Shown here one piece after another: positions 1 through 28,892 of a stretch of DNA of 64,000 nucleotides; positions within the stretch are counted from its first letter, which is position 1, and every line of letters starts with the position of its first letter. The position numbers and the translations under genes are program-made. Below the pieces are notes generated by a model. That model saw only the letters and a program-made list of their open reading frames with translations, ran no database searches and was not told the origin of the DNA. This DNA is from Haliotis rufescens (lineage: Eukaryota), in assembly GCF_023055435.1 (NCBI RefSeq), contig NW_025963779.1, positions 70,246,001 through 70,310,000 on the forward strand, given 5' to 3'.

Positions 1-598
1 GCCACCTGCCCTCTCTCCCTTATCAGCAGATCCCAAATCTCCTGTCTACTTATCACATATATCTTGATAAACCAGTGTCAACAACTTGAAGCAAATTTCA
101 CCGTTGTTGGTCTTGTTAACCTGCCTTTTTCCTTAGTATCCACTTTTTCTCAATGACGGATTATGTCCGATTTTACAAATCAAAACAGATCGGGGGCGTG
201 TTTAACAAAACGCGGTCCTAAATAGAGAGTATTATTTTGACTCTCTGCTATACATTGATAATTAAAGCGCTAAGATCGCTTTGTGGGCCGTGGTTCTCAC
301 AGTCTCGCAAGAAGAAGTACGGACAAAATAACTAGACTGGCTTCTACCTGTTGTGTGTGTCTGATAAAGAAAGTAGGTCAGGTACTTGTTCGCCTTACCG
401 ATCAACTGTCGATCTCAACCAGTTCATGCCCTGTGCTATATCAAGAGAAGGGGTCAGCCGAAATACGTTATACTATTTCATCATTCCATTAGCGTTTATA
501 TATCACTCTCCGTGCAACACCGACTACTGATGATGTAGCTGTCTCTACCGCGACCGCTGCTTGTTTGAGGTCACAAGTGTACACCACACGTAACTATA

Positions 599-1002
599 AT
601 GTTGTCGCGAGTCGCGTTCATCCATGTCCGACCCGGACATTCCACATCAGCCGTGTCTGTTTTGTGTCGATACAAGGGGACGTCTGCTCAAACTGACGAT
701 CATGCAGCAGACGTCAAACCGTTCTCGGCGCTGCCCGGGCCGAAGGGCTTGCCTGTTGTCGGTACCCTGTTCGACATCATGAAGAATTCCGCCCGGCTGA
801 ATGAAATGATTCAGAAACGTCACGAGACGTATGGACCTATCTACCGGGAAAAGATGGGGAGGATAGATGCCGTGTTTCTGACGGATGTGGAGGCGGTAGA
901 GCAGCTGTTCCGACAAGAAGCAAAGTACCCAGTTCGAATCCAACTGGAACACTGGATTAAGTACAGGGAGGACAGGGGTTTCAATAAAGGCCTTGTCATG
1001 TC
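599..1002 (+). CDS. CYP450 exon 1
   Basis: MLSRVAF...PGPKGLPVVG...GLVM; donor GTACGT at 1003, phase 2. Confidence 0.9.
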
Positions 1003-4000
1003 GTACGTATATTCATATATTCATCTTCGTTGTTGGGTATTGTATCTGTATATTGGGTATGAATTTCAAATTGTATGCCGCCTCTAATTTGTCATGTCAT
1101 TAGCAAATTTTGGTAGTGATAAATGTCCTCTGATGTAAGTACCCGAGAGAGTTTACTTTGCCCAGAACACAATCTCATTAAAATCAGATGTTTACTCGAT
1201 CTGACAAAAACACCTTTGAGGTCACGTCAGATGAACTTTCTAATCAGGCAATCAGCGAATATCTTATTTCTGTATTTCCAAAAATAGCGTAAATCGGCAT
1301 ATTCGAATTGGGAGTGATACAGGCTGCGTTTTATAAATTTATGTTTTGGATAATAAAATAACCTTATCGTTTCTGAGCGCCATGGCGTCTACACTCGAAG
1401 GATGTACGACCGAGGGAACTGCGTGTTCTATGTGGAATTTCTTTTTCTTCTGATTTTGAAATTTTCGATTGGTTGTGGTAGAGAAATTCAACCAAAAAGT
1501 TTTAGAAAGCTGACATGTAATTTAATTGGTTCAAAATTCCGTGTAATGTTCATCTTGATTGGGCTTTTAAACGTTGATCAGGTTCGTCTGACGTCAAATG
1601 ACAATAATGATTTAATGATGACGGAGAGATGTATCGATTCGGAGTATAGCACTTTAAAAGGGACAAACCAAGAATCATACTCAGGGCCAATGTGGGATTC
1701 GAACCAAGACAGAATTCTGGGATGCCAAAGGGACATAAACGCTTGAGGCGACTGGCTCCATCTCTCGGCCCCTTTAATGTAAGAATTTTCTCTGTAATTT
1801 ATTATAATATTATAATGATACAATACTGCTAATATGTGAGCTTAAGATTTCGGCCATACTCGTATGGTAACACATGTTCTACATTTCCTACGTTTCCAAG
1901 AAACACCGCAATGTGTTGGGTCCGATATTTACACTGCAGATCAGGTGAAGCTTGGCATTCCTTGAGGCGAGTGGTCGACCAGCATATGATGAAGATCAAG
2001 ACAGTCGAGTCCTACACTGGAGAATTTAACAAGGTTGTTGTAGAGTTCTTGGACCGAGTGGGAAGAATTCGAACCTCGGACAAAGAGTTGCCTGCATTGA
2101 ATAAGGAGCTATTCAACTGGTCTCTGGAATGTGAGTATTTGTATAACGTGTTCTGAGTAATGTAAATGTGTTCTGGAGCAAGAGTATTCTGACCATTTGG
2201 TTAGGTTTGAGAATACATTTGATTCTAAAGAAACGGATGCTTCATTGCCCAGAATGTACCTAAAAGGGACTATAGATGTGATTAGTTTAGAGAAATCAAG
2301 AAAACGAGTTAGTTCAGTTGGGTTGTCTATCGATAGATTACACAGTCTGTCATGGGTGGGACAAATCATTTCCCGATTCCACTGAAGATCCGGGGTAGAA
2401 TAGGTCTTCAGCAACCCATGCTTGCCGTAAAAGGCGACTATGCTTGTCGTAAGAGGCGACAAACGGGATCGGCTGGTCAGACTCGCTGACTTGGCTGATG
2501 CATGTCATCGCATCCCAATTGCGTGGATCGATGCTTATGGTGTCAATCAATGGATTGTCTGGTCTAGACTCGATTATTTACAGACCGCCGTCATGTAGCT
2601 GGAATATTGCTGACTGCGTCGTAACACAACAAACTAACCAACCAACCAACCAACCCAATTCCACTGAACTTGTGTCCCATTGGTCATAACTGAACAGAGC
2701 AATTTCTTAATGTAGACAAGCGCGTCTCTTTCCCTTGATGATCGTCGATAATAATAGGACCCCACGTCTCCAGTGGGTGCGCAGAGGATGCACCCCGATA
2801 ATGTTTAACAGCCGTGCTCGTGGTAAACGTCTGAGACCTGCATCACTTCGGGCTTTCCTCCCACATCAAGATGACACGCCGTGATGTAACGGGAATACTG
2901 TTCAAAGGGGCTCACTCACTGACTCATTCCTTATTGTGTCCACTATTTCCTAGATATCACTAGACCTTAAATTTGGTTTTAAAATAACCCCGATTCTGTT
3001 TCTAGGTTTAACAGCACCATACCCGAGTTCGTGGGTTTCACCAAAGTCTGAGACCTGCATCACTTCGGCTTTTCCTCCCACATCGAGATTACACGCTGTG
3101 ATATTACTCACACGACTCATTCCCGTGTCCACTATTTCCTAGATATCCTTAGACCTTATATTTTGTTTAAAATTAACAAGAACAAGAAATATCCAGTTAT
3201 TTCTCCAGCAGACCGATTTGCGTAACATTGCTGATCCGCCTCTCAATCGCGACATTTTCGCGTTTGTTTTCACGTGACGCGAGGATACATTGCTAAACTA
3301 ATGACTCTTTGTGCACAGCTATCGCCCGTATCCTGTACGAGAAGAGACTGGGATGTCTGTCAGACAACAGGAGTGAGGATACCCAGGCTTTCATCCAGAG
3401 CTCTCATGACATCTTTGAGACAACCAGGAAAATATTCTTCCTTCCACCCAAACTGGCCCGGATCTTCATGCCGCGCACCTACAAACAGCATGACGCAGCG
3501 TGGGACGAGGGCTTCCGTGTTGGTAGGTCGCCAGCGACGCTTCCAAAATAAGCAGAGACCATCTGATAGATGGTCTCAGATAATAAGCAAGTCATATAGT
3601 CTTGACAAATATGGTTGCATCGATTTTATATACCTGCTATTTGTGCAGGTATACTATCCATGCGTCGTACTGCACACGGCACGTTGATTTGCATCGTTCA
3701 TTAATTGGTTTGTGGACAATGTAAATGCAAAACTGACAGGTAGCATCGGTTTCGTCCAAATATTAATGCGCTGGCTGGATGCATTATAATATTTCTTAAA
3801 CGTTAGAAATTATATGTGTCAAGTTCATATACTTGATGAAAATTTCATAAGAATTTGGGGATAGAGAAAGAATGTTCGGAAAGTGTATATTGTTTTTGCT
3901 AATGATTTCAATTCCATATCACAAGGCATGCATGTCTTGTTTACTTTTGGATTCCTTCTTATTAAAGTCACTCGATGTTTTCACTGTAAACTCTATATTT

Positions 4001-7390: not shown

Positions 7391-9406
7391 AAGTACTGTC
7401 GGAAATGCTAGAAAACTGCTTTTTGCTTGTTAAAAAGGGATATAATTTTTCAATGACTGTTGTTATTGAAATATCGAGTAACTACCGATCGACCTACCTG
7501 TGGTTTGAAGTATTTCAGTCACAAGGAGTCCTATCGACAAGTTTACAGGAGACAAATTCGAACGAAAACAGGAATTTATATGGCAATGATGACAGTCTGA
7601 AACGGACTATAGAAATATGCGCACATGACTCCGTTATATTGATAATAATGTAGTCTACATAAAACATCTAATCCACACACAAAAATAATTTTGAGAAAAT
7701 TCCAGATGTGCATCTTCTAAAATGACAAAATAACGCTGCATTTGTATTGTTAACATTGCTCCCATGACGCACATTACATTACACTTGCATAGCCATAACC
7801 GCGGTACACGATATGGAGTCTGTACTGGGAAATGTATACAAGTTCTTTACACTTTAGAGAGATAGAGGGGAAACATTTATTAATTTAGATAGGGTGAATT
7901 ACCGAACTGCCCAAGCTATATGGTTTTCAATTCATACCATCAAGTCTACGGTATAATAAATAAAACAAAACAGGTATTAGGGTGGTCTCAAAAACAAAAC
8001 TGGGACGTAAAAGGATATTAGACAGCTTTGATACAGGGTAATTAGGCGTAAAGTGTACAAGCTTTATGAGCAGAAGGTAACCCTGGCTTGTAGTAGAATT
8101 TGGGAGGAAATTAACGATACAATTAATGTTTCCCGGACTGCACGAACTATTGCTCTCCAAGAGATGGGATTTCGATACACTACGTGTGGCGATGACCGAG
8201 CACTTTTCAGGGGGAAATATTCCATCCTGTCTAAGAGGTCACATTATCTCCGAACCATTCATAACTATCACAGTCAGGGCGTCCAGATAATTTACCTTGA
8301 TGAATCATTCTACTCACTACATGTGGTTATCGGCAGATGGACAAAAAGAACCAATAGACCATCAGGTAAAGGTAATCGTGTAATTGTTTTGCACGCTGCA
8401 ACACATGATATGGGGCTTATTGATGGATGTGTGCTAGTTTTCGAGGCGAAAAAGAAAACTGGTGATTTTCATAAGGAAATTATAGGAGGTGATGTGTTCA
8501 TAGACTGGTTGGAACTTCAGCTATTGCCAACTTTAAACAACATCAGTGTCATTGTAATATATAACGCCAGTTAATATAACGTCCGGGAATCAGACACTGT
8601 CGCCCAAACCATGAGTAGTCTGAAGGCGACCATACAGGAATATTTGACATTGTCGACTTCAGACCATATGAAACGAATGTTCAACTGATAGAGAAAATTT
8701 GGCTGAATAAGAACCCTGTAAAGTACAGGACATATGTGCTGGCGGCACAACACGGTCACGTTGTCATACGTACGCCAGTCAGACATTGTGAGCTCAACCC
8801 TGTTGTGCCCATCTAAGCTAAGTGTAAAGGGTTCGTGGCAAGACATAACACAACATTCAAAAGTACAGATTCATATACGTCACCGGCGGAGATAAATGCA
8901 ACCTCAAGAAATCAGCTGTAGAACAACAAATACTTCTGGAGTCCAAAACCGCAACCTTCCATTACTCATCCCATTTCATAGCTCTTAACTATTCCATCGT
9001 GTTTCCAAACAAATATAATGCAGTTCATATCCTTAATTGCTACCCCATCAACGCACATGTCAATTAAGTACAATAACAGCAATATTTTGAGACCACCCCA
9101 ACTCGGTGACATTTGGACCTGTGAAAATGCACGGGACGGTGTGAGGTCATCACCTCGGGACAGGTGTTAGGTAATTGCCTCAGGTTATATGCCATTTTAT
9201 ACATGCATGACAACACGCGAATATTTTCTAAGTTGATAATCATTTTACCTGTAAAAGTACATTTTTAGGGTAATCACAGAGTCAATTAGGACAGGCTAGA
9301 TTAGGGCAATTTGCGTTATTTTGATGTATGTTTTTTCAAAGTCCTATGACTCGTATTTATTAAATAAGGCCAGAAAAGCAGTTTTCTAGCATTTCCGACA
9401 GTACTT
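7391..9406 (+). mobile_element. Decayed IS630-Tc1-mariner transposon, DD~82E (Sailor-like), with intact TIRs
   Basis: Perfect 33-bp TIR AAGTACTGTCGGAAATGCTAGAAAACTGCTTTT (7391-7423; inverse 9374-9406), TA on both sides. Transposase relics IIYLDES, GKGNRVIVLHA, GDFHKE, SVIVI[Y]NAS*, HGHVVIR..HCELNPV. Confidence 0.88.
7990..8865 (+). pseudogene. DDE transposase pseudogene
   Basis: ORF 8053-8574 plus frameshifted continuation ...KYRTYVLAAQHGHVVIRTPVRHCELNPVVPI*AKCKGFVARHNTTFK; stops, and second D and E mutated. Confidence 0.85.
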
Positions 9407-10009
9407 TAGCATTTTGTGTATACTGTTTTTGACCAGGTGATGAACAGGCATGAGGTAGCCCTGAAAAGTCGGAACAAACAAAGAAGAAGTCATCCAATCA
9501 ATGGCTAGAACAGGTATAGCCTGTGGAAGTGCACAGATTCCACTTTCAACGCAGGCCTGGTGTGACCAACTGCGCCTTTTTAAAGACTACTCGTGTTTGT
9601 TCCAAAGTTCACGATAACAACTACTGGAGTTACTTTTGTAGCGTTGCTCCAATGCTGTGCTGTATTAACAGTCCATGGATGTAAAGCTATTATATCTCTA
9701 TAATGGCACGTCTAGATAAGCGGTTAGTGCATCTAAGGGCGCCAGTCTTTTATAGAGACAACTGATTCGTATTATTTTCTATGATAGTCCAGAATTACTA
9801 TTTAAACTACCAATAATTGTCGAAGAGACTTGTGCAAGTCTAGTACTTTCGCAATACAAATGTGGACTTGCACAAGAGTATGTAGGTCAAGATCATCCCG
9901 ATACGTGTCAGCAATCCAGTGAGGTCAACCCAACTGTATTGACCCACATTGACTGCTGTGAACAGAGCGCCAGCCCACATTCAGATCATTAAAGGTTATC
10001 GTATCATTT

Positions 10010-10620
10010 TCGGTGCAACACCGGCTATTGATGATGTAGCTGTCTCTATCGCATCCGCTGCTGGTCCAGTCAGCACACAAGTGTGCACCACACAAACTGG
10101 TATGTTGTTTCGAGGTGTTGTAGAGGTGAGCATCGGCCGTATCTGTTTTGCGTCGATACAAGGCGACGACGACGTCTACGCAAACTGACAAAGATGTTGC
10201 AGACGTCAAACCGTTCCCGGCGCTGCCCGAAATGCTTGCCTGTTGTTGGCATCCCCGGTCGACATCATCAAGAATTCCGCCAAGCTGAATGGAATGATTC
10301 AGAATCGTCACGAAACGCATGGACCTATCTACCGGGAAAAGATGGGGAGGATAGATGCCGTGTTTCCGACGGTTGTTTGTTTGTTTACTGTTTAACACCG
10401 CACTCAGCAATATTCCAACTATATGACGGCGGTCCCGATCTGTAAATATTCAAGTCACGAGCCTGACCATCCGATCCCGTTAGTCGCCTCTTACGACAAG
10501 CATTGTCACCTTTAGCGTAAGCATGGGTTGCTGGAGACCAGGTATCTGACCAGGTATCTGACGGATGTGGAGGCGGTAGAGCAGCTGTTCCGACAGGATG
10601 CGAAGTTCGCAGTTCGAACT
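10010..10620 (+). pseudogene. Decayed duplicate of CYP450 upstream region plus exon 1, interrupted by a family A SINE
   Basis: Aligns by eye to 509-940 (e.g. GGACCTATCTACCGGGAAAAGATGGGGAGGATAGATGCCGTGTTT identical); frameshifts; SINE at 10373-10554 with degenerate TSD TTTCCGACGG/TATCTGACGG. Confidence 0.88.
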
Positions 10621-12667: not shown

Positions 12668-12922
12668 GGCGGTGGGGTAGCCTGGTGGTTAAAGCGTTAG
12701 CTTGTATTGCCGAAGACCCGAGTTCGATTCCGACATTGCCATAATATGTGAGGCCCATACCTGGTATCATCTTGCCGCGGCAGAGGTGTTAACTGACTTT
12801 ATAAAAGTCACTTTTATAGTCAGTTAACACCTTTGCTGCGGGAAGATGACCTGGTATATCATCCGCTGTCACCTGGCATGATTGCTAAAAGCGGCGTAAA
12901 ACATCCTCACTCAACTCACTCA
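12668..12922 (+). mobile_element. tRNA(Asp-like)-derived SINE family B with a nested foldback element
   Basis: A-box TAGCCTGGTGG, B-box AGTTCGATTCC, tail TGCTAAAAGCGGCGTAAAA(CACT)n; adjacent opposite copy at ~12465-12597(-). Confidence 0.8.
12768..12848. mobile_element. 81-bp foldback element made only of two TIRs, 9-bp TSD
   Basis: Near-perfect palindrome CATCTTGCCGCGGCAGAGGTGTTAACTGACT...AGTCAGTTAACACCTTTGCTGCGGGAAGATG flanked by ACCTGGTAT (12759-12767, 12849-12857). Confidence 0.85.
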
Positions 12923-14866: not shown

Positions 14867-15923
14867 TGGCGGTCTTGGCTTAAGTGTGAAGATTGTGTGA
14901 TAGCTATTCTTGTTTCTATATCAATACATGTAGTTTGTAGTTTTCCGTCACAGTGACGGTGTAGGTGTCCAAAGTGGAATGTTAGTGCAGTACATTATCT
15001 TAGCTTATCTAACACATGTCCCTCAGAATTGTAAGAAATCACTTTCAAAAAACGCAATCATGACAAAATGTTGCCGCCTAATCATTATTAAGAAAGTAGG
15101 TGTAGTACAATATCTAAAACTTATCGTGTTCGGCTATTTCAAAGGATATATGGTATGCTGTCACTGCGTTTCTGGCAAACCGTCATATTCTTCACATCCT
15201 CTTACGATAAAACAACCAGGGCGTGTCTAACTTACAAAGCACATTGCCTCGTGTCAATTAGAGGTGTTAACACAGGAGCGTCAACGCCGAATGTGTTTGT
15301 TATAGATAACAAATCTGCAGCAGTACAGGTCGAGGAAGAACATTTGTACCCATTCGAGGCCATCACACAGATTCACATTATTTAAGGGGGTACGGCTGGC
15401 ACAGTTACCTGTGTGTTTGTTTGTTGTTTGATGGAATTATCTCGCTATACCACTCAAAGGAAGTTTTTACTGTAGTTAATCGTTGTATGACAGAATATTT
15501 GTTTGTGTGTTTGTTGTTGGTTGTTTAACGCCGCACTCGGCAATATACCAGCTGTATGACGGCGGTCTGTAAATAATCGTGTCTGGACCAGACAATCCAG
15601 TGACGGATATTATGATAATCGATCTACGTAATTGGGATACGATAACATGCATCAACCAAGTCAGCGGGCCTGACCACCCGATCCCTTAAGTCGCCTCTTA
15701 CGATAAGCATGGGTTGCTGAAGTAATATGTTAACATGGCTTAACAGATTAACTATAATAATATTATGAAAGAATCGGGTGTCGACACCTCACAACTGCCC
15801 CGAGATTGATCCCAACAACACAAATGAATCTGAAAATGATAGAACATCTACAGGATAGTTACAGTGAGAGAATGATGTTTAACGCCACGAGCAGTAGTAT
15901 TGTAATGCCATACTGGCCTGTAT

Positions 15924-15958
15924 CAGAGACCATATAATAGAGTATTATATGGTCTCTG
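15924..15958. mobile_element. 35-bp palindrome with 7-bp TSD; putative P-superfamily excision footprint
   Basis: CAGAGACCATATAATAG-AG-TATTATATGGTCTCTG flanked by CCTGTAT on both sides. Confidence 0.75.
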
Positions 15959-16027
15959 CCTGTATACAATCGAGTCAGGCCAACAACCATGTCATTGAGT
16001 CCAATTTAGTTTTTAGTAACCTCTTTG

Positions 16028-16362
16028 CTCTCGTTGGCTGAGGGTGGATGGGTAGTCTTGGGATAAAGCGTTCTCTCGTTGGCTGACGGTGGATGGGTAG
16101 TCTTGGGATAAAGCGTTCTCTCGTTGGCTGAGGGCGAATGGGTATAGTCTTGGGATAAAGCGTCGTCTCGTTGGCTGAGGGTGAATGGGTTGTCTTGGGA
16201 TAAAGCGTTCTCTCGTTGGCTGAGGGCGAATGGGTAGTCTTGGGATAAAGCGTTCTCTCGTTTCGCCGAAGGCCCGGGTCCGACCCTAACATTGTAACAA
16301 TGTGTCCCCCGACGCTCTACTGCAGGAATATTGCTAAAAGCGGCGTAAGACCAAACTCACTG
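16028..16362 (+). repeat. ~45-bp minisatellite (5 copies) running into a family B SINE
   Basis: Unit CTCTCGTTGGCTGAGGGTGGATGGGTAGTCTTGGGATAAAGCGTT; the last unit continues as SINE B (CGCCGAAGGCCCGGGTCCGA...GCTAAAAGCGGCGTAA). Confidence 0.85.
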
Positions 16363-16959
16363 CTCGTTGATTCACATGCCAGATTCACCCCGATTAGGAA
16401 TTTTGATCTCTGTAAGCACAATACATGCACTCGTGGGTTCCGCAAAAGTAGTAAAACGCCTCACTTCCCCCCACAGCTGACACGCCTTGATAAGTTGAAA
16501 TACTATTCAAAGTGGCTTTTATCTTACTCTACTTTGTCGTTAAACATTTCAGAGTACTTGTTCCTTTTTAACGGGTTCCGCCTCCTCTATTTTGAAAATG
16601 AAGCCAACGCCTCCACAGAACCCGGATGTGCAGCGGCATAGCTGATACTGTAAACCATCCACGTACACATATATTTTCGTGAAATTGCATGAAATCACTG
16701 TGTATACTTTGGACCACGTTGTATATTACGTAAACAGGACGAAGATCTACATTTACTATGTGCAGTGTGCTGTGGTGTAGAGGACATGCTGCATTAAGTA
16801 TTGCTTATATATATAATTGCCTCAGTAACATTTCCACATGTCATTTTGCCATTTAACTGAGGTCTTTGTATAATTTTATAGAGTACTTTTCTCACGACCT
16901 CGCCTATGTTTGCTAATACGTCTCCGATTTGCCGGTCAAATGGAAATTCATATGTCCAA

Positions 16960-17123
16960 AAAAATAGTAAATGTCCCGTTTCCGGTTCTCTAATCTAATC
17001 TCCGGCATGGAATTAAAAGATAGAGTCACTGTACACAAACAGCAGATTAGAGACCCTGATGTTTAATGCTTAGGTGTCAGCAAACACATTGATGATTGCG
17101 GAAACGGGACATTTAGTATTTTT
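16960..17123. mobile_element. Short element with 25-bp inverted repeats (putative MITE)
   Basis: AAAAATAGTAAATGTCCCGTTTCCG ... CGGAAACGGGACATTTAGTATTTTT (24/25 match). Confidence 0.55.
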
Positions 17124-19261
17124 CCGTTTTATAAATTGAATACCAGTAGAGACTGGAAAAAGAACAAATGTTGATCCAATTGATGAAACCCAAATTGAAC
17201 TCTAGAATGTATTAATAGATTTGTCATTTCAATCGTAAATGTTACACTGTTACTTTACAAATACTGATATATGTATCAACACAAATGACATTTTTAAAAA
17301 CGCAGAATTCAAAATCTAAGTCCATGTGCGTTCTCGGACTAAATATCACAACCTGCTGTCTATCTAACTTGTTCGGAATGGCTGTCGCCTAGATAGCGCC
17401 GTATAGCGGGGAGGGGCACTGGTGTTATCACTTGCTGCTGAGGAGGGGGAACCTGCTCTCTTACTGACTGTCGTGTATGTTTCAGACTTCCCCAGATTCC
17501 TCAAATTCCCTGCCGTCAGCTCGTGTGGAGAGATATATTGTGTATCCGATATAGGCCTGTCATGAATGCTAAACGGCGCCGAGAGATAACTTCTTCTGGT
17601 TATCTGGCAAAATGATGCTATAAATCGCTTAGGTACCACCATATTCTGGCGTGAACAAAAGAACAGCTTACTCTGGCTCTCTTGATGGAGAGAGGTTCAT
17701 TAACACTTAAGATACATCAACGCTTTCGGCCAATAAAATTTGAAAAGGTGTTTGATAATGGAACCGTTACCTTCTCTCATAACCTTGATTAGGACGTACA
17801 AGCAACTTGTTCACTTTCAACACGCAGATAAGAATGTATTCAACAAGTAGCCATTTGATACACAAACAATACGTTTTGCGGACCTTGGAGTGAAAACAGT
17901 TGAGTTTTTTCATTTGAAAAATAACCAGTACATCAACGAACCTCTTAAATCTTAAGACACTTTCTAGAAAAACAAATACAATTTTGAAAACACAAACATA
18001 TATTCGGAATTGTGGTTTATTATGGTATACCTGTGACCAAGAATGACAATAAAGTATTAGGTAAATGCTGAGATATTTGCATTAACATTGGACGGCTGAC
18101 GCAAGACAGCTTCACTGTCCGTTTGTATCGCAGGGGTCCCGACAGTTCTCTAGTTTAAATACAGTATTGATATTGATCAATACCGATTTGTTTCGCTATA
18201 GCCAATATCGATATGTTTAAGATGTGTTGCGTGGTTGTCAACACCATGCAGCGAAACGAATACCACAGAGTCCATTTATTCGTGTGAATCACAGTTTGGA
18301 AGATTATTTTCTATTGATTTGTAGACTAATGGGGATGTGAGAGGAATAGTAACGAGCATTTGCCGAAATGCAGTTGCAAACAAATGCGAATGAAACAAAT
18401 TCATACAGGAAAAAGATATTGATCACGTTTCAATATAAATGCGCCCACTTGAACGCATGTAGCAAAATGGTTGCTAGATTTCACAGGAAAGACTCGATAC
18501 GCACTCTTCATATGTCTTCCGCCGCGACATTGCTGGAATACTGCTAAAGTCGGCGTAGTAAACAAACTCATTTACTCATATTTTATCAATTCTTACGACA
18601 AACCGCAGAAACTCAGTGCACGGTGTAAGGCGCTGGAATTCCCGCTAGAGTTACTTCCCGTAGCCATACCAGGAACCACTGGTTGTCTCTTCGCGTTCTT
18701 GGTTTGGCCCGAATATGATCCTTGGTTTGTCAGCACCACATCTGTGTTCCTGGGTTTCATCGAAATAGTAAACGTCTACGAGTTGCTTTGGTTCATCCGG
18801 CCGCCTAACAGGCTGTGCTATATAATAACAGAAATACTGTGTTAGCTCACGCGTCCTTTACACTTGACTGTCAGTGCCCCACGCCTTGAGATTCCGAAGA
18901 TATCCACTGTACGTCATGCCTAATTGGTCTTCAGCAACCCATGCATGTTTTTCGTAAGAATCGAAAAACGGGGTCGGTTTAATCTGTCTCACAATCCCTG
19001 AACCATATTATTTTCCCTTCCGCTGAGCCCTTAATTAATGCTCTAGCCCTAAATTAAGCATTTTTAACAGGTCCACCCGTTTTGGGGGGTCAGGCTCGCT
19101 GCCCTGGTTGTATACTAACGCTTTGTCTCCGAAAATATATAATTTGGATAAAAACAAGCAACTGCAATTAAAGTAAGAAGGAGCTCCTGGCAGTGTGATT
19201 GGAGATTCAGAACCTGTGGAAAAACTGGATTTTTTGCATTTAGAGGTACTGAGTTACAGTA

Positions 19262-19423
19262 GTGAGTGAGTATAGTTTGACGCCGCTTTTAGCAATATTC
19301 CAGCAATATCACGGCGGGGAACACTACAAATTGGCTTCACACATTGTACCCATGTGGAGAATCTAATCCGGATCTTCGGCGTGACGAGCGAACGCTTTAA
19401 CCACTGGGCTACCCCACCGCCCC
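19262..19423 (-). mobile_element. SINE family B
   Basis: Near-identical to 53980-54142. Confidence 0.85.
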
Positions 19424-19795
19424 AGCGTTACAGTAAGGGCTGGGCGGAAGGGAAAATAATGTGGCGGAGGCACTGTGAGACAGACTAACTTGTTTGATGC
19501 ATGACACCGTATCCCTATTGCGTTGATCGATGCTGAGTTTAACAACAAACAAAACAACTCATGCTTGGTTGTGTCCCATCGTCCTACGACGGCGTGTATC
19601 GTCGTGACCATTATCGCTTTATATGGGAAGCACATATGATCAAGAACAAACAACGAGCCGAAGGGTTGAAAACTTTGCATGCTTTATAACAGGAATTGGG
19701 TACTGAGAACCTAGTACCGATGTCAGTGTATGGTATAATCACTTAATATCAGGATATTACAACATGTTTGCTTGTAATACTTTAAACCAACAGCC

Positions 19796-20024
19796 NNNNN
19801 NNNNNNNNNNNNNNNNNNNNNNNNNNNNNNNNNNNNNNNNNNNNNNNNNNNNNNNNNNNNNNNNNNNNNNNNNNNNNNNNNNNNNNNNNNNNNNNNNNNN
19901 NNNNNNNNNNNNNNNNNNNNNNNNNNNNNNNNNNNNNNNNNNNNNNNNNNNNNNNNNNNNNNNNNNNNNNNNNNNNNNNNNNNNNNNNNNNNNNNNNNNN
20001 NNNNNNNNNNNNNNNNNNNNNNNN
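19796..20024. other. Assembly gap
   Basis: Run of N. Confidence 1.
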
Positions 20025-20569
20025 ATAATATGATGTGTGTATAACTTGTGAATCACACTGCACGCTTGTTGATTACCCACTCTGTGGAAGGTCGGAGTTA
20101 TGCCATGTTAATGTATTACAGATGAATGCATAGTCCGTGATTTGAGGCAATTACCAAACGTGTGGTCCTAATGACCGCGGGGGGGGGGGAATGTTCAATC
20201 TCTGCTGCTGTTTGGAAATGTCAGAGTGCCGTGATATGCGAAAGCCTTGTTCCACATGAACCGTTTCCACTCAGTAGCAAAGCCAGCCATATGTTGATCA
20301 GTCACTGATCACAGCCAACATGTTTTGGGATGATCTTGTAAAGTTTTGATTGATTCACTTCTTTATGAGATTAAATCTGCACTCATCCATGGTGTAGATT
20401 GAAATCGGGACATAACGTAAATTTGTTACCCATGTTTCATTGCTAAGCTGTCAAACTCCGACAAGTATTGCTGAGAAGATTGCCCACATGGTGGGAACAA
20501 TGTGTGAAGCCCTATCTTTGTATTCCACATCGTGATTTGGCTGGAATATTGCTAAAAGTGCATACTACC

Positions 20570-20656
20570 TAGTCTGTCTCACAGTACCAGAACCATATTA
20601 TTTTACCTTCTCCCAGCTGTTACGGTAACGCTATAGCCCTAAATGAAGCAAGGCTA
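20570..20656 (+). mobile_element. Short dispersed repeat with TAG...CTA ends
   Basis: TAGTCTGTCTCACAGT...ATTATTTT.CCTTC...GCCCTAAAT.AAGCA; related copies at ~18983-19060(+) and ~19423-19487(-); no TSD recognised. Confidence 0.5.
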
Positions 20657-21219
20657 GATTTTCCTCAGGTTCATGTCTGAATCTACCATCTCAGTGGGGC
20701 TCCTTTTCAATGTATATGTAGTTGCTTGTTTTTGTCAAAACCACATTTCAGCGACTAAGCGTTAGTCTAACATGGTGAGTTCAACGTGTAAAGCCCATTC
20801 TTGGTGTTCTATATAGCGATATGGCTGGAGTATTGCTAATATCGGCATAGATCATTTACATATTTCTCAGAGAGAAATGGGTTTTATACCATTCCGCGCT
20901 TTCACAGATATATCATTCATGATTGCGATTTACAGTCGGGCCTGGACACTGGGATCTTGGGGGCCGTTCCAAAAAGCGGTCGTAGTACAATGGTGATCGT
21001 AGCTACCATACTTTAACAGACTTACGACTGCCGTAGTGCTACGGTCGCTTTGTAGAACGGGACTCAAGGAACGATAAACCACCCCTAGACCACATGCAGA
21101 CATGCAATCACGCACGCACCCACGAGCACACACATACAGACAGACAGTCTGAGAGACAACGGTACATGTCTATTGAATATTTATATGATTAGATACCACT
21201 CACTTTACGGCGTGTATGG

Positions 21220-21221
<2 letters not shown>

Positions 21222-21286
<65 letters not shown>
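21222..21286. repeat. (GT)n microsatellite
   Basis: About 32 GT units. Confidence 0.97.
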
Positions 21287-21287
<1 letters not shown>

Positions 21288-21676
21288 ACGAGCGTCCTTG
21301 TGTCGTCTAAGGAGCAGCAATTGTGCAAAGTTGCGTCCCTTGGAAAAGCCAGACAAATATGATCATGGGTTCGAATCCCGGTTTGCCCCGATTGTGTTTG
21401 TCAGCACAATGCCCGTGCTCAGTTCTTCTTACCAAAGTGGTAAACGTCTGAGATATGCATAACTTCGGGCTTTCCTCACACATTAAACTGACACGACGTC
21501 ATATGACTGGAACATTGTTGAAAGCGGCGTTAAACTCAACTCACTCACTCACTCAATCTTATTTTCGGTAATCATTTGAACGCTCAATTACACATGAATA
21601 AATAGGCGGGCTATCTTAGACCATCGGAACAGGGGTTACGGGTAGTGATATACGCAACATACACTACCCAGGTTAC

Positions 21677-22175
21677 CAACTTCCCGAGGCATGAAAGTTA
21701 ACTGACTATATAAGTTCAGTTTCCACCCGTGCCGAACTAGGCTGCAGTTATGTCTGGATTAACGAGTCTATGCATAGTCCAATCAAAATCGCTGAACGAA
21801 CAAGACATCCGGTTCCTAAACAAAATGGATTTCAAGTGCAGATTTCGGTCGACTGCAGGATTTGCATGTTGCTTCATGCTTTAAATCAAGGTGCTCACGT
21901 GATTTGATGCACTTCGCGGGGTAAGACCCGTTTTATAACAATATAGATCTTGATTTTTTAGCAGATCGTCTTGACTGGGCGCCGCCATTTTGTTTGAAGC
22001 AAATGCAAGTGATATGAGATATGGAATCTGATTGGTCAACTGGAGGAACATAGAAGGGACTTAACTCGTAATAGCCACTGCTGGCGCTACGATCGAGCCT
22101 GGAAATTCCAGCCTAGTTCAGCAAGGGTGGAAACTGGAGTCTTTAGTCAGTTAACGCCCTTGCCTCGGGAAGATG
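21677..22175 (+). mobile_element. ~500-bp MITE with ~65-bp imperfect TIRs (CATCTTCCCG family)
   Basis: Left CTTCCCGAGGCA..GTTAACTGACTA..CAGTTTCCACCCGTGCCGAACTAGGCTG; right end is its inverse, ending CCTCGGGAAGATG. Confidence 0.8.
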
Positions 22176-25100
22176 CTTATATTCTGGACTGGCTCAAAAT
22201 AATGATTTAAATACAAAAAGACTAATTAGTAAAAAAGAAGTGAACAAATTCCCCACACACCTGAGTTTCGAACGTGACCACTGTGCAGCAAACTGAACCT
22301 TTAAAACGGCCTGCGAGTACTGGGGAGTAAAGACACAAGTATAAATATACTGCGCGTTGACCCGAGAGAGGGCAATCGCTCCTGGACAGCCGGGGAATAC
22401 AACAGACTGAGGCGCCCAGCCAACGTGTGTTTCTAAACATGGGGAAAACACGAAAAGCAAACTAACTACTATATCCATACTGAAGATGCAAGTATCAGAA
22501 TAAAGCATTGATTATGAGCTATCCAACGATAACATTAAAGATTTACAACAAGCTATGTACAATTATTGAGGCAAAATGATCATATACACATTAGAAATAT
22601 CTGAGTGTACCTTTAAATTCCTCTGTTTGAAAATCATGGTTACAAAAACATTTTCAACACATGAATAAGGTAGCGAACATATAGGAGATCAAACATCAAG
22701 TCAATAAATGGTATGAGCGTGCCTTTAAATCCAACGAGAATAAAAAAGTCGGGCCACTAATTCCCAAACACAGAATGTAATGACACCGAAGAACGACGAC
22801 CGCCGGACGTTGCCGAGCGGTGTCGGAAATAAAGCCGGGGAGCGTCGAGGTCACTGGACTGTGACACGAGCTGATTCGATCTACGGTGACAGACTTTATA
22901 AAGTCATTTTCTGACATCCTTTTATGGGATTTTACTTAATTGTCCCTGTTCTAAAATATATTTCATCATTTTTTATAAGCTGACAAAGTGCTTATGAAAT
23001 GTACCAGTATGGGATAACAACATCGGATAATGTTCCGTTATCGAACGCATTCAGTTCTAATTGATTATCAGCAGCCATATATGCATCAATGTGAAGTCTA
23101 TCGATAGACGTATTCACGCAAGGTTTTTGTCTTAAACGTCTTAAGTTTTTAGATAGCTTATTTGAATCTTATTTTAGCCAATCAGAATCGAGCATTCTTC
23201 AGTGCCATTAAGGTGATAGGTCTGTTTTATTCATGTAGTCGGTTAATATCTTATACGAATAAGAACGATTTTACTCTCTTATATATTTAGCCTAGTTGTC
23301 ACAGATATAATCAACCGTAAATAGATGAGAAAGAAATTTCACGCGGGTAATTGAATTAGTGAATCCGAATGCGCTACCGACTCACAATCCTCACAATCCT
23401 CCAACGATGCGTTATTAGTGCAACACACTAAAACAGCAGGGACTGGCAGCCCCTCGCGAGGCAAGTAGTTCATGACGTCAAGGCTGCAACATCTGCGTTA
23501 TTACACGAATCAGCGATCAAATCAAACAATCAAATCTCCGAATACACGCCACTGGGGCATGGAACACGAGGGTTGTGTATGTGCTGGGGGCTCCCATCCC
23601 AGGGGCTATCGATCAGCTGGTACAGGAGGAGCGAGAGCAAGGCCTATACTGTTACTGCATCCGCCAGAGACACGTTGATGTCTACACGTCTCAAAGGGGG
23701 ACTGTCATCCGTCTGTGATGGGGTCAGATCTTCCTGTCGTGTTGGTAATAAACAGATTAAATATTGATCTCAAGAAACGCTGCTATACTTAGAACCGCAG
23801 GAAGTCCGACCTGTAGGAAAGATGGATTTCAGTAGGTCTTTCAATAATTTGATTCTTTGTTCCTACATGCAGAGATATTAGAAAAGTGTTCGGGAGATAC
23901 GAAACTATATGAACATACTAAGAATTGGAGTAATCTTAGAGGTACTCGGGAAAATGATACAAAATAAACTACAAAAGAAAGTATAACACTTGAAAACTGG
24001 ATTTGATTAAATAAAATGTAATGTGTTTGGCAACAGTCATCTATTTTCCTATTATTTTCTATTTTCCTCTATTTTATTCTTTCCTAGCTCTATTATAATG
24101 GACCAACTCAAACCAACGCAACATCTCTCAAACAACCCCCCAACTGCACTAACACACACCTCAAAAACCTAAATGTCATAAGCATGAATCACGTCCATAT
24201 TTTACGGAATTAAAGCCTGAAACAAGCTGACGTAAGCATGATACGAAATTCAAGGACACAGACGTGATGTGGGTAATTCTGATAACGCATCGCCAAGCTG
24301 CCTAGTTAAAAACCTGCGTGCATGTAGTTGTCAGACTGCTCAGAAACAAACAAGCCGCTCGTTTCCGATATGAATCCGAGCTCTTGCTGCCAGTGGTCGC
24401 TATGATCGGGCCAGCCTATCCTATGTCCACTCACTTCGATAACGTGGTCAGTATGTACCGGACATCTATCTGACCGGAATATCACACAGTGTAAGTATTC
24501 AGTTTATGCAATGGTTGTAGAATAACAGTGCATGCTATATCAAGCCGTATCGCACACTCGTGGGGCCTTGCGTCAGTGACTGGATGTTAAATTGTGTCAT
24601 ATTTGTAGTTAACGAATGAAAACGACATTATGTTAGTGTGCCTTTCACTTGATAGACAGTGTAGAGTTGCCTATTTACTAAAGTGTATATACTAGAAGCA
24701 ATACATGTATCGTCCCAATGTACCACCACCAACTCGATTATATTAACGTTGGAGTTAAATTCGCTACAGCATCGCGTGCTAATGTTGCAATCACGCAGAA
24801 ATAAATCGTCTCCAGATTCTTATAAAAATGGCAGTTGCTCGTTCCATGACTTTATACGATTTAAAGTCGCTTGTCTCGATAAACTAGTTTTTTTACCGAA
24901 CCAACGCCTAAAGCATGGACGCTCTGATTGTGTATGTCCATATACCTGCATCTACAGGTAAGTTGGTTCGTCTTATTTAAAGAATCTTCAAGGATTAGAG
25001 ATGTCTTATATCGTTTACTATCACATGAAGAGGGTGCCAAAACTGTTTATATACCTCTTTAACCTATTCTCAAATGTTTAGCTCCATAACATATATCGTA

Positions 25101-25511
25101 TGGCAATGTAAACTAACACTCGAGACTGGCCCCGGCCTAGTCTTGTATAGTTAGTTGCAGGTATAGCGCGGTTTCAGTGCCTGCCTATACCGTTGAAACT
25201 AAATATCTCTCGACAGGAGGAAGTGATCTGACAGAAGCAATTGTTGCAATACGTTTCTAAGCTAATCTTTTGTTCCTTTCCAAAAAGGATTTGACTTGAA
25301 ACGTGAGTGCAAATGCTTCATAAATAGGTTGTAGTCATGCGGTAAAAATGGTTCCGCTCTAAAGTCTTCGAGCAGGCTAGTGCTATCACTCAACGCCATA
25401 TGATAACGGCAAGCGTTTGTGGGGAATCTTCCCGCGTGTGAGAGACGATACCTTACCGATGCCAGATATTTTTAGACACGTACAGATAGCAAGTTCTTCT
25501 ACACTCTGACA

Positions 25512-25590
25512 CATTTGTCAGGGCGCAGTGACGTAGCAGCTGTGTCACGTGACCGTGCACCTGCAACAGTCACGTGATACCACATCTGGA
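25512..25590. promoter_or_regulatory. Dense E-box/CRE-like cluster, candidate promoter or enhancer of the GPCR
   Basis: TGACGT, CAGCTG, GTCACGTGAC, CACCTG, GTCACGTGA, CATCTG within 80 bp; donor-like G|GTGAGT at 25850. Confidence 0.35.
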
Positions 25591-25909
25591 TTTACGAATG
25601 TTGTGTTTATCGTAAGGTGATGTCAGATCATTTGCACATTTGGTTTTGCTTGTATAATACATGCTTGGTTTTGAGACGAGGAGATTGACCCTGTTACGGG
25701 GTTTTGTTTGCTGTTTTTGTCGGAGACCTCGGTTGTTGAAAAATACGGGAGTTCGGATGAATAAGGATTGAAATAACACGTGTCTTTGGAAATATCCTGA
25801 AGTTGAATACAACCTAGTGTAGTCTTCAACTCAACCCCGGGTGTTGCTGGTGAGTAGGTTCAGTTAAAGACTATGTTTATAACCTAGACTGATATCTAGT
25901 CTCCGAAAT

Positions 25910-25951
25910 CAGAGACCATATAATATATATATATATATAATATGGTCTCTA
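25910..25951. mobile_element. Putative P-superfamily footprint, copy 2
   Basis: CAGAGACCATATAATA(TA)nATATGGTCTCTA flanked by CCGAAAT/CCGAGAT. Confidence 0.65.
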
Positions 25952-26129
25952 CCGAGATGAACTGTTTTACAGAGAGAAAAAAACCGTTGTTAAATTAAAC
26001 TTCTAAAATATGATAAAAAGGAGCCCAGAGACTTTCTTCGTTATCAGATACTGCTGTAATCAAGACTCTATATTATAGACTTGCATGGGCTGTATTGGAT
26101 ATATTTGTTTCAGGATCTGTATGACAGAC

Positions 26130-26175
26130 CAGAGACCATAGACCATATAATATAAAATCTATTATATGGTCTCTG
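26130..26175. mobile_element. Putative P-superfamily footprint, copy 3
   Basis: CAGAGACCATA[GACCATA]TAATA-TAAAAT-CTATTATATGGTCTCTG flanked by exact GACAGAC. Confidence 0.72.
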
Positions 26176-26884
26176 GACAGACTATCTATAACCGTATGTA
26201 CAGCTTGCAATATATTCCCATATAAAGTGTCGTAGTCTATGTTAAGTTACGCACGAAAACACATTTGCTCCTCTCACATTGTTCCATACTCATATTGAAA
26301 TGCCGAGACCGACATCGACTTTTGTAACTTCCGTGCCAATAGTTGTTTCAGTATCCTTTCAATTGCTTCCTCTTCATCTTCACATGATGACGTTAATCTA
26401 CATCTACAATAACAGTGTTCGGTTACCAATTTTTCATCAGATATTGGTGGTATTTTAGACCTTTATGAAAATGAGATCAGTGTCATATGCAAATGTTTCC
26501 AAACTGTACATGGGCGTTCTGGGTATGTGAAAATACAGAAGGTTTGATACTTAGCTTTTTACGAGGCGTATATTTGCAATCATTTCCGGTCGGGCAAGTA
26601 GTACCACAGATGCATACCTACCGCGAAAAATATTATTTAAACTTTACATTTTAAATAGCATTAGAGACTTCACTTTCTTACACATGATTATGTAAACTTT
26701 GCTCTTCACTGAATTAAAGGCCAAGTTAGGACGCGACCTTATTAGTAACTGTTTATGAATCAAAGTTGGATGTATTCCCAACTTCCAAACATGCTGTCCT
26801 GACCCCTGTTCCACACATATAAAGCCGTCTTAGTACTAAGACTCTCGTAAGAATCTGCTACAGATCGCGGTCATCTTAGCACTA

Positions 26885-27232
26885 GGTGAGGTGAAATGGG
26901 GTTTAACGTCGCGTCCAAGATTATTGCACTTATATAGCGACGTGCATGTACGTGTGTGTGTGTTTGTGTGGCTGCATGTACTAGTCAGGACTGATGCCGA
27001 TTTATAGTGCTAGCTCACTGAGATACCATGCCGCAGTTTAACATGAATACCCCACTCAGACACAGTATACTGACTCCGAGCCGACCAGTCCTTGTTTTAG
27101 CCCCTTAATGCCGAGCGCCAGACAGGGTAACAACATATACCATCTTTTAACGTCTTTTGGTATGACGCGGCCGGGGATCGAACCCCGGACCTTCCGCTCT
27201 CCGGGCGGACGCTCTACCACTAGACAACGGAG
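26885..27232 (-). mobile_element. Full-length tRNA-derived SINE family D (RUDI/V-SINE-like), 13-bp TSD
   Basis: A-box TGTCTAGTGGT, B-box GGTTCGATCCC, body GACTGGTCGGCTCGGAGTCAG...CAGTGAGCTAGCACTATAAA (resembles molluscan RUDI, from memory); TSD CATCTTAGCACTA. Other copies at ~39470-39630, 40340-40605, 40940-41090, 49855-49918 (all -) and 51740-52046(+). Confidence 0.85.
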
Positions 27233-27992
27233 CATCTTAGCACTAAGACTCTCGTAAGAATCTGTTACAGATCGCGATCATCTTGGCGCTCTAATCGCTT
27301 TGTGGACAGAGTGAGCGAGTGAGTTTGGTGTAACGCCTCTTTGAACAGTGTTTCCGTTATATCAAGGTGTGTCAGTGGGATGTGGAAAGAAAGCCCGAAG
27401 TGGTCTCTGAAGTTTACAATTTTGGTGAAAGCCACGAGCACGGGTATGGAGCGGACAAACCTAGATACCTAAATATGGGTAATTTGGGATTCGTACTCAC
27501 GATCAAAGGTCTCTGACACGTTGGTGGTAGGCAACACTCTGCTCAACGAGTCCCGAGGCAGTTGACTCCTGGGCCACCCGTGCCCTCTAACCGGGACAAA
27601 GGCAGCCAAAATACATGTTTGTGGCCAACCCAATTTTACATGGAGCCAAATTCAGATAATGAAGTTAATGTTTCGCTCATACTGGTGAAGTAACATTAAT
27701 ACATATAAAAATTCAATGCGTCCTCGACGTATCCGAGTTTTGAAGACCGAACCCAAAAATGTAGAAATTGTGATCGATACTTGATGTTTGATCAGGTTTG
27801 GATACAATGCATAGTCTGTAGGCGACTGCAAAATAAATTATGAGCGCCAAACTAAAATCGGTCGCTAAATTGAGGGCTGCGAAATATATATGTATTATTT
27901 ATCAACTATTCAATGCATGATTGCGATCTATACTAATGCTGGCATGAACCTATTTATAAAAAACATTGTTAATAATGTGTTTCTCCCGCCAG

Positions 27993-28892
27993 ATGGAGCT
28001 GTTGCTGGGAGGTATCCAGGTGACGCTGAGGCACAACCTAGGCGTCCTCCTGTTATGCGACGTCCTCATCCTCATCCTCAACCTCATGGTCATCCTGATC
28101 ATCCTCATGTCGGAGAGGTTCAGGAGCTCCACCAAGCACCTGCTAATTGTCAATCTAGCCTTTGCCGACCTCCTAATAGGGGCTATAGTGATACCTCTTT
28201 ATGCAGACTATGGGGAGAAGGGAGAGTGGCAGTTCCCCTGCGCTTTGAGGAACGCACTGACTCTGCTCCAGATAAACATCCTTCCGTCTATAACTACATT
28301 ATGTGTGTTTGTCATCAATATGGATTACGTGTTCAGGATGGGGTGCTATTTGTACACAAACGGTAAGACAAAGTACGTGATGTCTGGTTCAATGGGTATT
28401 TTACCCTGGTTGATATCCGGGGCGCTCCTGGTACCACTATATTTCATGGCCACAGAGCCGGGTCGTCCATATGACGTACTTCCGTGCGTCAGGAGGTACA
28501 AGGAAGACGTCACGGCACTGCTACTCATAGCCTTCTCGTTCTTTCCCCAAAGTTTCGTCATCATGGTCACTGGAATTGCTTCTGTCATCGGATACCTCAT
28601 CAAACGGCGCTCCACGGGGCTGGACATGTTTGGCGAGAGAATACACTCACCAGTGGACATAAGCATGGTCAGTTTTGTCACCATCCTTTTCTATACCCCG
28701 TACTTCTGTCTGGCTGTCCCCGTTAACCGAATAAGCTGCAGCACATCCTCAGAGTGTGAAGTCCTTCATACCATTGGCATTATGGCCAGCTGGTTGTTTG
28801 TCATCAAGTCCTTTGTCGTGCCCTTGTGTTGGTTCTGTTCTAGAGACTTCAGAGCCGCGTTCAGGAATATTTGCTGTTGGTGTTGCTGCTAG
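27993..28892 (+). CDS. Atypical rhodopsin-like (class A) GPCR, intronless CDS, 299 aa
   Basis: Seven hydrophobic segments; TM1 N, TM2 NLAFADLL, ECL1 W, TM4 W, TM5 P, TM6 FYTP, helix 8 SRDFRAAF, Cys-rich tail. ATG directly follows acceptor TTTCTCCCGCCAG; AATAAA at ~29565. Confidence 0.88.
   Translation: MELLLGGIQVTLRHNLGVLLLCDVLILILNLMVILIILMSERFRSSTKHLLIVNLAFADLLIGAIVIPLYADYGEKGEWQFPCALRNALTLLQINILPSITTLCVFVINMDYVFRMGCYLYTNGKTKYVMSGSMGILPWLISGALLVPLYFMATEPGRPYDVLPCVRRYKEDVTALLLIAFSFFPQSFVIMVTGIASVIGYLIKRRSTGLDMFGERIHSPVDISMVSFVTILFYTPYFCLAVPVNRISCSTSSECEVLHTIGIMASWLFVIKSFVVPLCWFCSRDFRAAFRNICCWCCC

Follow-up and report, generated by a model that had tools for sequence, protein, structure and literature searches.

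The P transposase of Drosophila binds internal 10-bp sites of an element with 31-bp repeats; one strand is cut at the element's 3' end and the other 17 bp further in (PMC7776569). The break left in the chromosome bears 17-nt non-complementary 3' tails, and its repair goes through homologous recombination or end joining (PMC7776569). Junctions left by excision comprise one copy of the target-site duplication (TSD), a stub of at most 17 nt, microhomology or inserted bases, a second stub and the other copy of the TSD, with arms that are trimmed and fillers that may be AT-rich and templated (PMC2895639). The literature covered here credits the Drosophila P transposase with this 17-nt stagger, which it regards as unusual; its passages on Galileo, 1360 and THAP9 do not state a cut position. 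Here a family of short palindromes is described from the abalone Haliotis rufescens, found in a stretch of 64,000 nucleotides of contig NW_025963779.1 (positions 70,246,001 to 70,310,000, hereafter the window). These palindromes, each lying between two copies of a short target, are probably end-joining scars of a P-like transposon that is cut with a stagger of 17–19 nt. This kind of scar is already known, and the abalone family with these ends is a new example of it.

Junctions of the Drosophila melanogaster P element and the abalone palindromes share the order of TSD, stub, filler or microhomology, stub and TSD, a length of approximately 25–50 bp, asymmetric trimming, AT-rich fillers and CA..TG ends (PMC7776569, PMC2895639). 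The P ends listed in the tables of one of these sources also begin with CA, as the abalone arms do (PMC2895639). The two differ in several respects: the abalone TSD is 7 bp rather than 8 bp, the end sequence diverges past the first CA, the stubs reach 18–19 nt rather than 17 nt, and the abalone scars represent natural standing variation in a mollusc rather than excision induced in flies.

Anatomy of the palindromes and depth of the cut

Three palindromes of 35–46 bp, each with its own 7-bp flanking direct repeat, had been called in an original prediction made from the sequence alone, and all three are present as it described them, with TSDs matching at 7/7, 6/7 and 7/7 positions (copies 1 to 3, Table 1). 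TSD lengths of 4–11 bp were tried and 7 alone fits copies 1, 2 and 3 together, the probability that all three TSDs match by chance being about 9e-12. A scan blind to the family (10-nt arm with at most 1 mismatch, 24–60 bp in all, 7-bp TSD with at most 1 mismatch) recovers exactly copies 1–3 from the window, whereas 30 shuffles averaged 0.23 such elements and never gave more than 2; repeated with an 8-bp repeat, the scan returns one further element, the degenerate fourth copy at 3553–3579. The 16-nt arm has 8 matches in the window at no more than 3 mismatches where 0.95 would be expected, a count reached in 0/100 shuffles, and all 8 belong to the four small copies, the window being without any longer derivative that bears these ends. 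The palindromes and their flanking repeats are real.

Table 1. Positions in the window of the four palindromes, their target copies and the repeat that hosts copy 3
Feature	Position	Strand	Remarks
Copy 1, left TSD (7 bp)	15917..15923	.	identical to 15959-15965
Copy 1, probable scar, 35 bp	15924..15958	.	18-nt left arm + 1 nt + 16-nt right arm (or 17 + 2 + 16)
Copy 1, right TSD	15959..15965	.	7/7 match
Copy 2, left TSD	25903..25909	.	6/7 match to right one
Copy 2, probable scar, 42 bp	25910..25951	.	16-nt left arm, (TA)n filler, ~12-nt right arm
Copy 2, right TSD	25952..25958	.	6/7 match to left one
Host repeat of copy 3, high-copy, dispersed	25968..26129 (start approximate)	.	last bases are the copy 3 target
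Copy 3, left TSD	26123..26129	.	7/7 match
Copy 3, probable scar, 46 bp	26130..26175	.	16-nt left arm, 5-nt filler, 18-nt right arm
Copy 3, right TSD	26176..26182	.	7/7 match
Fourth copy, probable degenerate scar, 27 bp	3553..3579	.	between cytochrome P450 exons

Two further copies come from a metagenome collection, in which 2 of the 38 matches to the 17-mer of the family have a partner arm. Both lie in a single assembly. One (L045) is 32 bp long, with arms of 17 and 13 nt, a filler of 2 and a TSD matching at 7/7 positions, and the other (L043) is 29 bp long with a 19-nt arm and a TSD matching at 5/7. Because the contigs of this assembly share the dispersed repeats of the window (up to 94% over 90 bp), they likely derive from the same or a related animal. 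The four copies of the window and these two make up the six sequenced copies. Two other matches were set aside. The same 17-nt end occurs on the minus strand of a contig (L029, 400–509) that looks animal but has no repeat in common with the window, with a short tandem motif some 40–60 bp inside. It may mark one end of a longer relative; its 1.4-kb contig, however, contains neither a partner arm nor a TSD, and it is not used as evidence. A 20-bp perfect palindrome in a viral contig (L063) lies inside an open reading frame (ORF) of 284 aa and has no TSD, and is attributed to chance.

The copies have the same construction, with stubs of both ends of an element held between two retained copies of the TSD. 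Total length ranges from 27 to 46 bp. The insertion, the 7-bp duplication, the shared stubs, the variable centres and a likely polymorphism can be read from the sequences directly. The 7-bp TSD is exact in 3/6 copies (copies 1 and 3 and L045), the five 7-bp targets yield no clear consensus, and the arms are terminal inverted repeats that start with CA and give CA..TG ends, a weak feature that is common to other superfamilies. The centres differ in 6/6 copies, with 0 identical pairs in what is a small sample; the identical centres that the original prediction had named as one ground for refutation do not occur among the six. Individual copies also show changes of their own. The right arm of copy 2 has A in place of G as its last base and a second difference, and the left arm of copy 3 contains a 7-nt tandem duplication (26133–26139 repeated at 26140–26146), which may reflect templated repair synthesis or later slippage. 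In the fourth copy the first 10 nt are those of the family and 17 of the first 19 bases match the longest arm.

The original prediction held that the shared arm length never exceeds 17 nt and that the family cuts with the same 17-nt geometry as Drosophila P. The first statement is wrong and the second is not shown, as the left arm of copy 1 and the right arm of copy 3 share 18 nt, and the latter shares 19 nt with L043. The arms are trimmed to 7–19 nt, and no pair among the 12 arms of the six copies shares more than 19. Four arms have G at position 17, of which three continue with A at position 18 and two of those with T at 19, and the degenerate fourth copy has GAT at these positions as well. 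The ceiling of 18–19 nt is an apparent one, since L043 and L045 were picked by a 17-nt match and the fillers are AT-rich, so that bases 18–19 may be filler. By rough estimate, a 17-nt cut is still compatible with these bases (chance ~0.1). A cut 17–19 nt inside each end is accordingly predicted from comparison of the arms.

Formation of such a scar would proceed in four steps. An element with ends CAGAGACCATATAATAG(A), presumably a long one, would insert and duplicate 7 bp. The transposase, by analogy with that of Drosophila P, would cut one strand at the very end of the element and the other far within the terminal repeat, so that both chromosome ends carry the same single-stranded 3' tail. 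The non-complementary tails would be slightly trimmed and joined, probably by end joining and in many cases with the addition or templated synthesis of some bases, for instance a run of TA, and the product would be a palindrome with arms never longer than the tail and a centre that varies by site. The scar, being without the internal sites bound by the transposase, would then be immobile. Of this sequence of events we infer the long parent element, the staggered cut, the joining of the ends and the immobility.

Copies in other individuals and at other loci

Four of 24 runs, all in the form of contigs, were compared with the window over 25200–26900, the stretch that holds copies 2 and 3: X7 and X10 from organism A, X12 from organism B and X15 from organism C. 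Copy 2 is carried by X7 and X10, whose contigs span 25200–26030 with 829 letters compared with 831. The pieces from X12 and X15 end at 25910, where the alignment masks 25911–25950 as repeat. At copy 3 the contigs of the locus begin in 4/4 runs precisely where the right target copy does, at 26176, and the unmatched letters ahead of this position (12, 18, 23 and 18 in the four runs) do not match the right arm of copy 3. An allele empty at copy 3 would be the simplest reading of these starts.

Evidence on the target itself comes from paralogues of the repeat in which copy 3 lies. In each run 302–330 paralogue contigs part from the window sequence at position 26129, with TA as their next bases and the target present once. 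This TA is the window sequence that follows the second target of copy 3, and one consensus row has the target once and then TAT. Because the paralogues carry a single target and the right arm is missing in 4/4 runs, copy 3 is read as an insertion that duplicated a 7-bp target; sequence comparison suggests that it is likely a true 7-bp TSD and that the insertion is young and polymorphic. Copy 3 being absent from the other individuals examined, both its insertion and the excision that followed were likely recent. The host repeat continues at 26176–26184, ends in a short hairpin followed by TA, and has one copy in the window; its summed depth in X7 is up to ~758,000 compared with 49 beside it (~15,000x), and it occurs on more than 3,000 contigs per run.

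The original prediction further proposed that copies 2 and 3, which lie close together, mark local hopping or a hotspot of insertion. That one hop from site 2 gave rise to copy 3 is unlikely because two individuals carry copy 2 without copy 3. In addition, copy 2 has substitutions that copy 3 is without, and is likely the older of the two. The range of local hopping is given as ~50–150 kb in a review (PMC7776569). A hotspot is possible but weak as an explanation, the chance of such closeness being 0.02–0.04 and calculated post hoc. Beyond copy 3, a dense cluster of differences at 26517–26567 is common to X7, X10 and partly X12 and is not found in X15; here the window is closer to organism C than to both runs of organism A.

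Related palindromes also occur at many other loci. Summed depth at 26154, within the filler of copy 3, is 25–60x that of neighbouring positions, a figure that is read only as many other loci and not as copy number. Among the 12 indel rows listed, 9 fall at 26152–26156, again in this filler. These 9 rows hold 37 contig entries in six length classes, with 1–4 letters omitted or 1–2 inserted, and one locus may be counted in several runs. The classes run from 35 to 41 bp (compared with the 39-bp core), 12/37 entries being of 36 bp; this distribution is biased by an 85% filter and is not used for cut depth. One X7 contig agrees with copy 3 as far as 26175, beyond which it passes into another part of the host repeat, and is likely a separate insertion.

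Superfamily membership and rival explanations

The P superfamily is marked by a transposase with THAP, HTH and RNase H domains and a GTP-binding insertion. Membership of the abalone family, judged from the ends and targets of its small copies, is likely. The 7-bp TSD falls in the 7–9-bp range of the superfamily (P, Galileo, 1360 and THAP9-type elements), and Galileo and 1360/Hoppel likewise have TSDs of 7 bp (PMC3698922, PMC4168063, PMC2775673). Unlike Galileo targets, the abalone targets fit the GTANTAC consensus in 0/5 seven-bp cases. The Repbase rule for assigning ends asks for a match to a classified family over positions 1–11 with at most one mismatch (PMC4455052), and the arms do not match Drosophila P itself at that level.

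Two described cases extend the comparison beyond the Drosophila P element. BuT5 of Drosophila mojavensis, a miniature inverted-repeat transposable element (MITE) assigned to a divergent P element (PMC3698922), has left a natural remnant of 27 bp, with 12 + 15 bp of the two ends between the target copies (PMC3355041). This is a single insect case with a 9-bp target, unlike the dispersed family of the abalone (PMC3355041). In the zebrafish, Pdre2/THAP9 shows that P-like elements outside insects exist and can be excised; Pdre2 has a 13-bp terminal inverted repeat and an 8-bp TSD, and excision by zfTHAP9 in cell assays was accompanied by larger flanking deletions (PMC7776569; bioRxiv 10.1101/2024.03.22.586318). 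In the literature searched (most subscription journals and Repbase Reports being outside its scope), neither the arm motif nor a report of such scars in molluscs was found.

The claim of the original prediction that the palindromes are P-superfamily excision footprints therefore divides in two. The scar part is sustained by the TSD insertion at copy 3, the variable centres of 6/6 copies and an anatomy that is that of P junctions. The P label, in turn, depends on TSD length (7 bp), on ends in CA..TG and on the great length of arm that is retained, and a 7-bp TSD is not exclusive to P elements.

Several observations weigh against reading the palindromes as P-type scars. THAP and P-transposase domains are absent from all 118 ORFs of the window scanned with Pfam (at least 75 aa, tandem arrays excluded). 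No long element with these ends was seen in the window, nor a two-ended one among 38 metagenome, 17 prokaryote-genome and 7 viral matches, so that the transposase-bearing element proposed as a check in the original prediction has found no candidate in either place; a partner arm is absent from 36/38 metagenome, 17/17 prokaryote-genome and 7/7 viral matches, and the paired-arm pattern has 0 matches in prokaryote genomes. The search for empty-site alleles, also proposed there, gave a probable empty allele for copy 3 in 4/4 runs, and no allele holding a full element among the four runs at 25200–26900. That empty allele is derived from alignment stops, with the unmatched letters unseen and no joint there among the joints listed. 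The flanks of the fourth copy (3545–3552 and 3580–3587) match at 7/8 positions as an 8-bp repeat and only at 3/7 as a 7-bp one, which fits an 8-bp rather than a 7-bp duplication. Centre variants at other loci sit on contigs of ~4–8x single-copy depth (383.9 and 192.9 compared with 49.3 in X7; 75.6 compared with 16 in X10), and some centres may recur at several loci as they would in a replicating mini-element. TSDs of 7 bp also occur in the hAT7 and Kyakuja elements of fungi (PMC12730594). Finally, the junction tables used for comparison come from repair-mutant flies (spn-A mus308) and not from the wild type (PMC2895639).

The rival that survives best, although an unlikely one, is extreme internal deletion: a terminal-repeat element of whatever superfamily, such as a hAT element with a 7-bp TSD, would be reduced to a palindrome by aborted gap repair in which only a few bases at each end are copied, with no deep staggered cut. 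Such products are plausible in that gap repair in the P superfamily leaves defective copies (PMC4168063), in that hAT7 and Kyakuja both have 7-bp TSDs, Kyakuja with CA..TG ends as well (PMC12730594), and in that no parent element was found in the window or among the collection matches. Both families are reported from fungi, and Kyakuja is without terminal inverted repeats, unlike the abalone arms (PMC12730594). Deletion offers no reason for a single stop length, yet 6/6 copies share arms of at most 19 nt and total 27–46 bp, and the 8/8 arm matches of the window all fall in its four small copies. Excision of hAT elements proceeds through hairpins on the flanks and keeps no bases of the terminal repeat, so stubs of 16–19 nt are not expected from it. 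An animal group with 7-bp TSDs, 'hATw', is also recognized. In the abalone copies the inserted bases are shared element-end sequence and not inverted flank, which is not a hAT-type footprint and leaves room for a deleted hAT element.

Slightly less probable still is a replicating micro-MITE, in which elements of 30–45 bp would be moved whole by a transposase acting in trans. The elevated depth of several centre variants agrees with such replication, as does copy 3, which is young and intact at both ends. The six differing centres, the asymmetric trimming of the arms (17 + 13, 19 + 7, 18 + 16) and the at least six length classes at other loci do not. Scars lying within multi-copy repeats would raise depth too, and identical joins recur independently in P excision (one join in 5 isolates, another in 7; PMC2895639). 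The P transposase, moreover, requires internal binding sites beyond the terminal repeat (PMC7776569). Chance hairpins, locally evolved palindromes or assembly artefacts might be suspected from the AT-rich centres, the draft state of the assembly and the metagenome and prokaryote-genome matches in which the 17-mer stands alone, and are very improbable in view of the shuffle controls, the joint TSD chance, the presence of copy 2 in two independent runs and the clean L045 with its 7/7 TSD in an unrelated assembly. Scars of a P-like transposon thus rank ahead of deletion derivatives and of a micro-MITE.

If the palindromes are indeed natural scars in a mollusc, a long overhang is used far outside flies and also in the branch with 7-bp TSDs. 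A wider proposal can be put forward only tentatively: that abalones harbor a recently active P-like family with a 7-bp TSD, cut 18–19 nt rather than 17 nt inside its ends, whose scars segregate as insertion alleles of 40–50 bp and pile up genome-wide, that the cliff in arm length directly reports how a so far unstudied transposase cuts, and that protostome P elements inherited the long staggered cut from their ancestor, its depth being specific to each family. From a genome-wide tally of arm lengths the depth of the cut could be measured with no biochemical work, and in the fillers one could read how broken ends are joined in the mollusc germline. Scars of this kind would also generate small insertion polymorphisms, and might be classed as micro-MITEs by mistake.

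Genes and other repeats of the window

The window belongs to a draft assembly with gaps and contains two runs of N. A Pfam scan of its ORFs identifies cytochrome P450 exons, a rhodopsin-type G-protein-coupled receptor reading frame at 27960–28889 and AP-3 beta exons. The receptor is 90% identical to a protein of Haliotis asinina and 46% identical to one of Gigantopelta aegis (the 2 named of 5 matches), which makes an abalone host very likely, and copy 3 ends ~1.8 kb ahead of its frame. The cytochrome P450 exons lie at 569–4812 on the plus strand, and a broken look-alike of the first exon at approximately 9925–10449 suggests a local partial duplication. A frame of 180 aa at 8032–8574 on the plus strand has no Pfam match at E 0.001 and by eye looks like a decayed fragment of an IS630/Tc1-type transposase.

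Two further small repeats are of note. An 81-bp near-perfect foldback element with CAT..ATG ends lies at 12768–12848 between exact 9-bp direct repeats (12759–12767 and 12849–12857), and looks like a small non-autonomous element with a 9-bp TSD, of MULE type or P type. An element of 144 bp at 16970–17113, with inverted ends of ~15 bp and a 5-bp flanking repeat, is a probable MITE.

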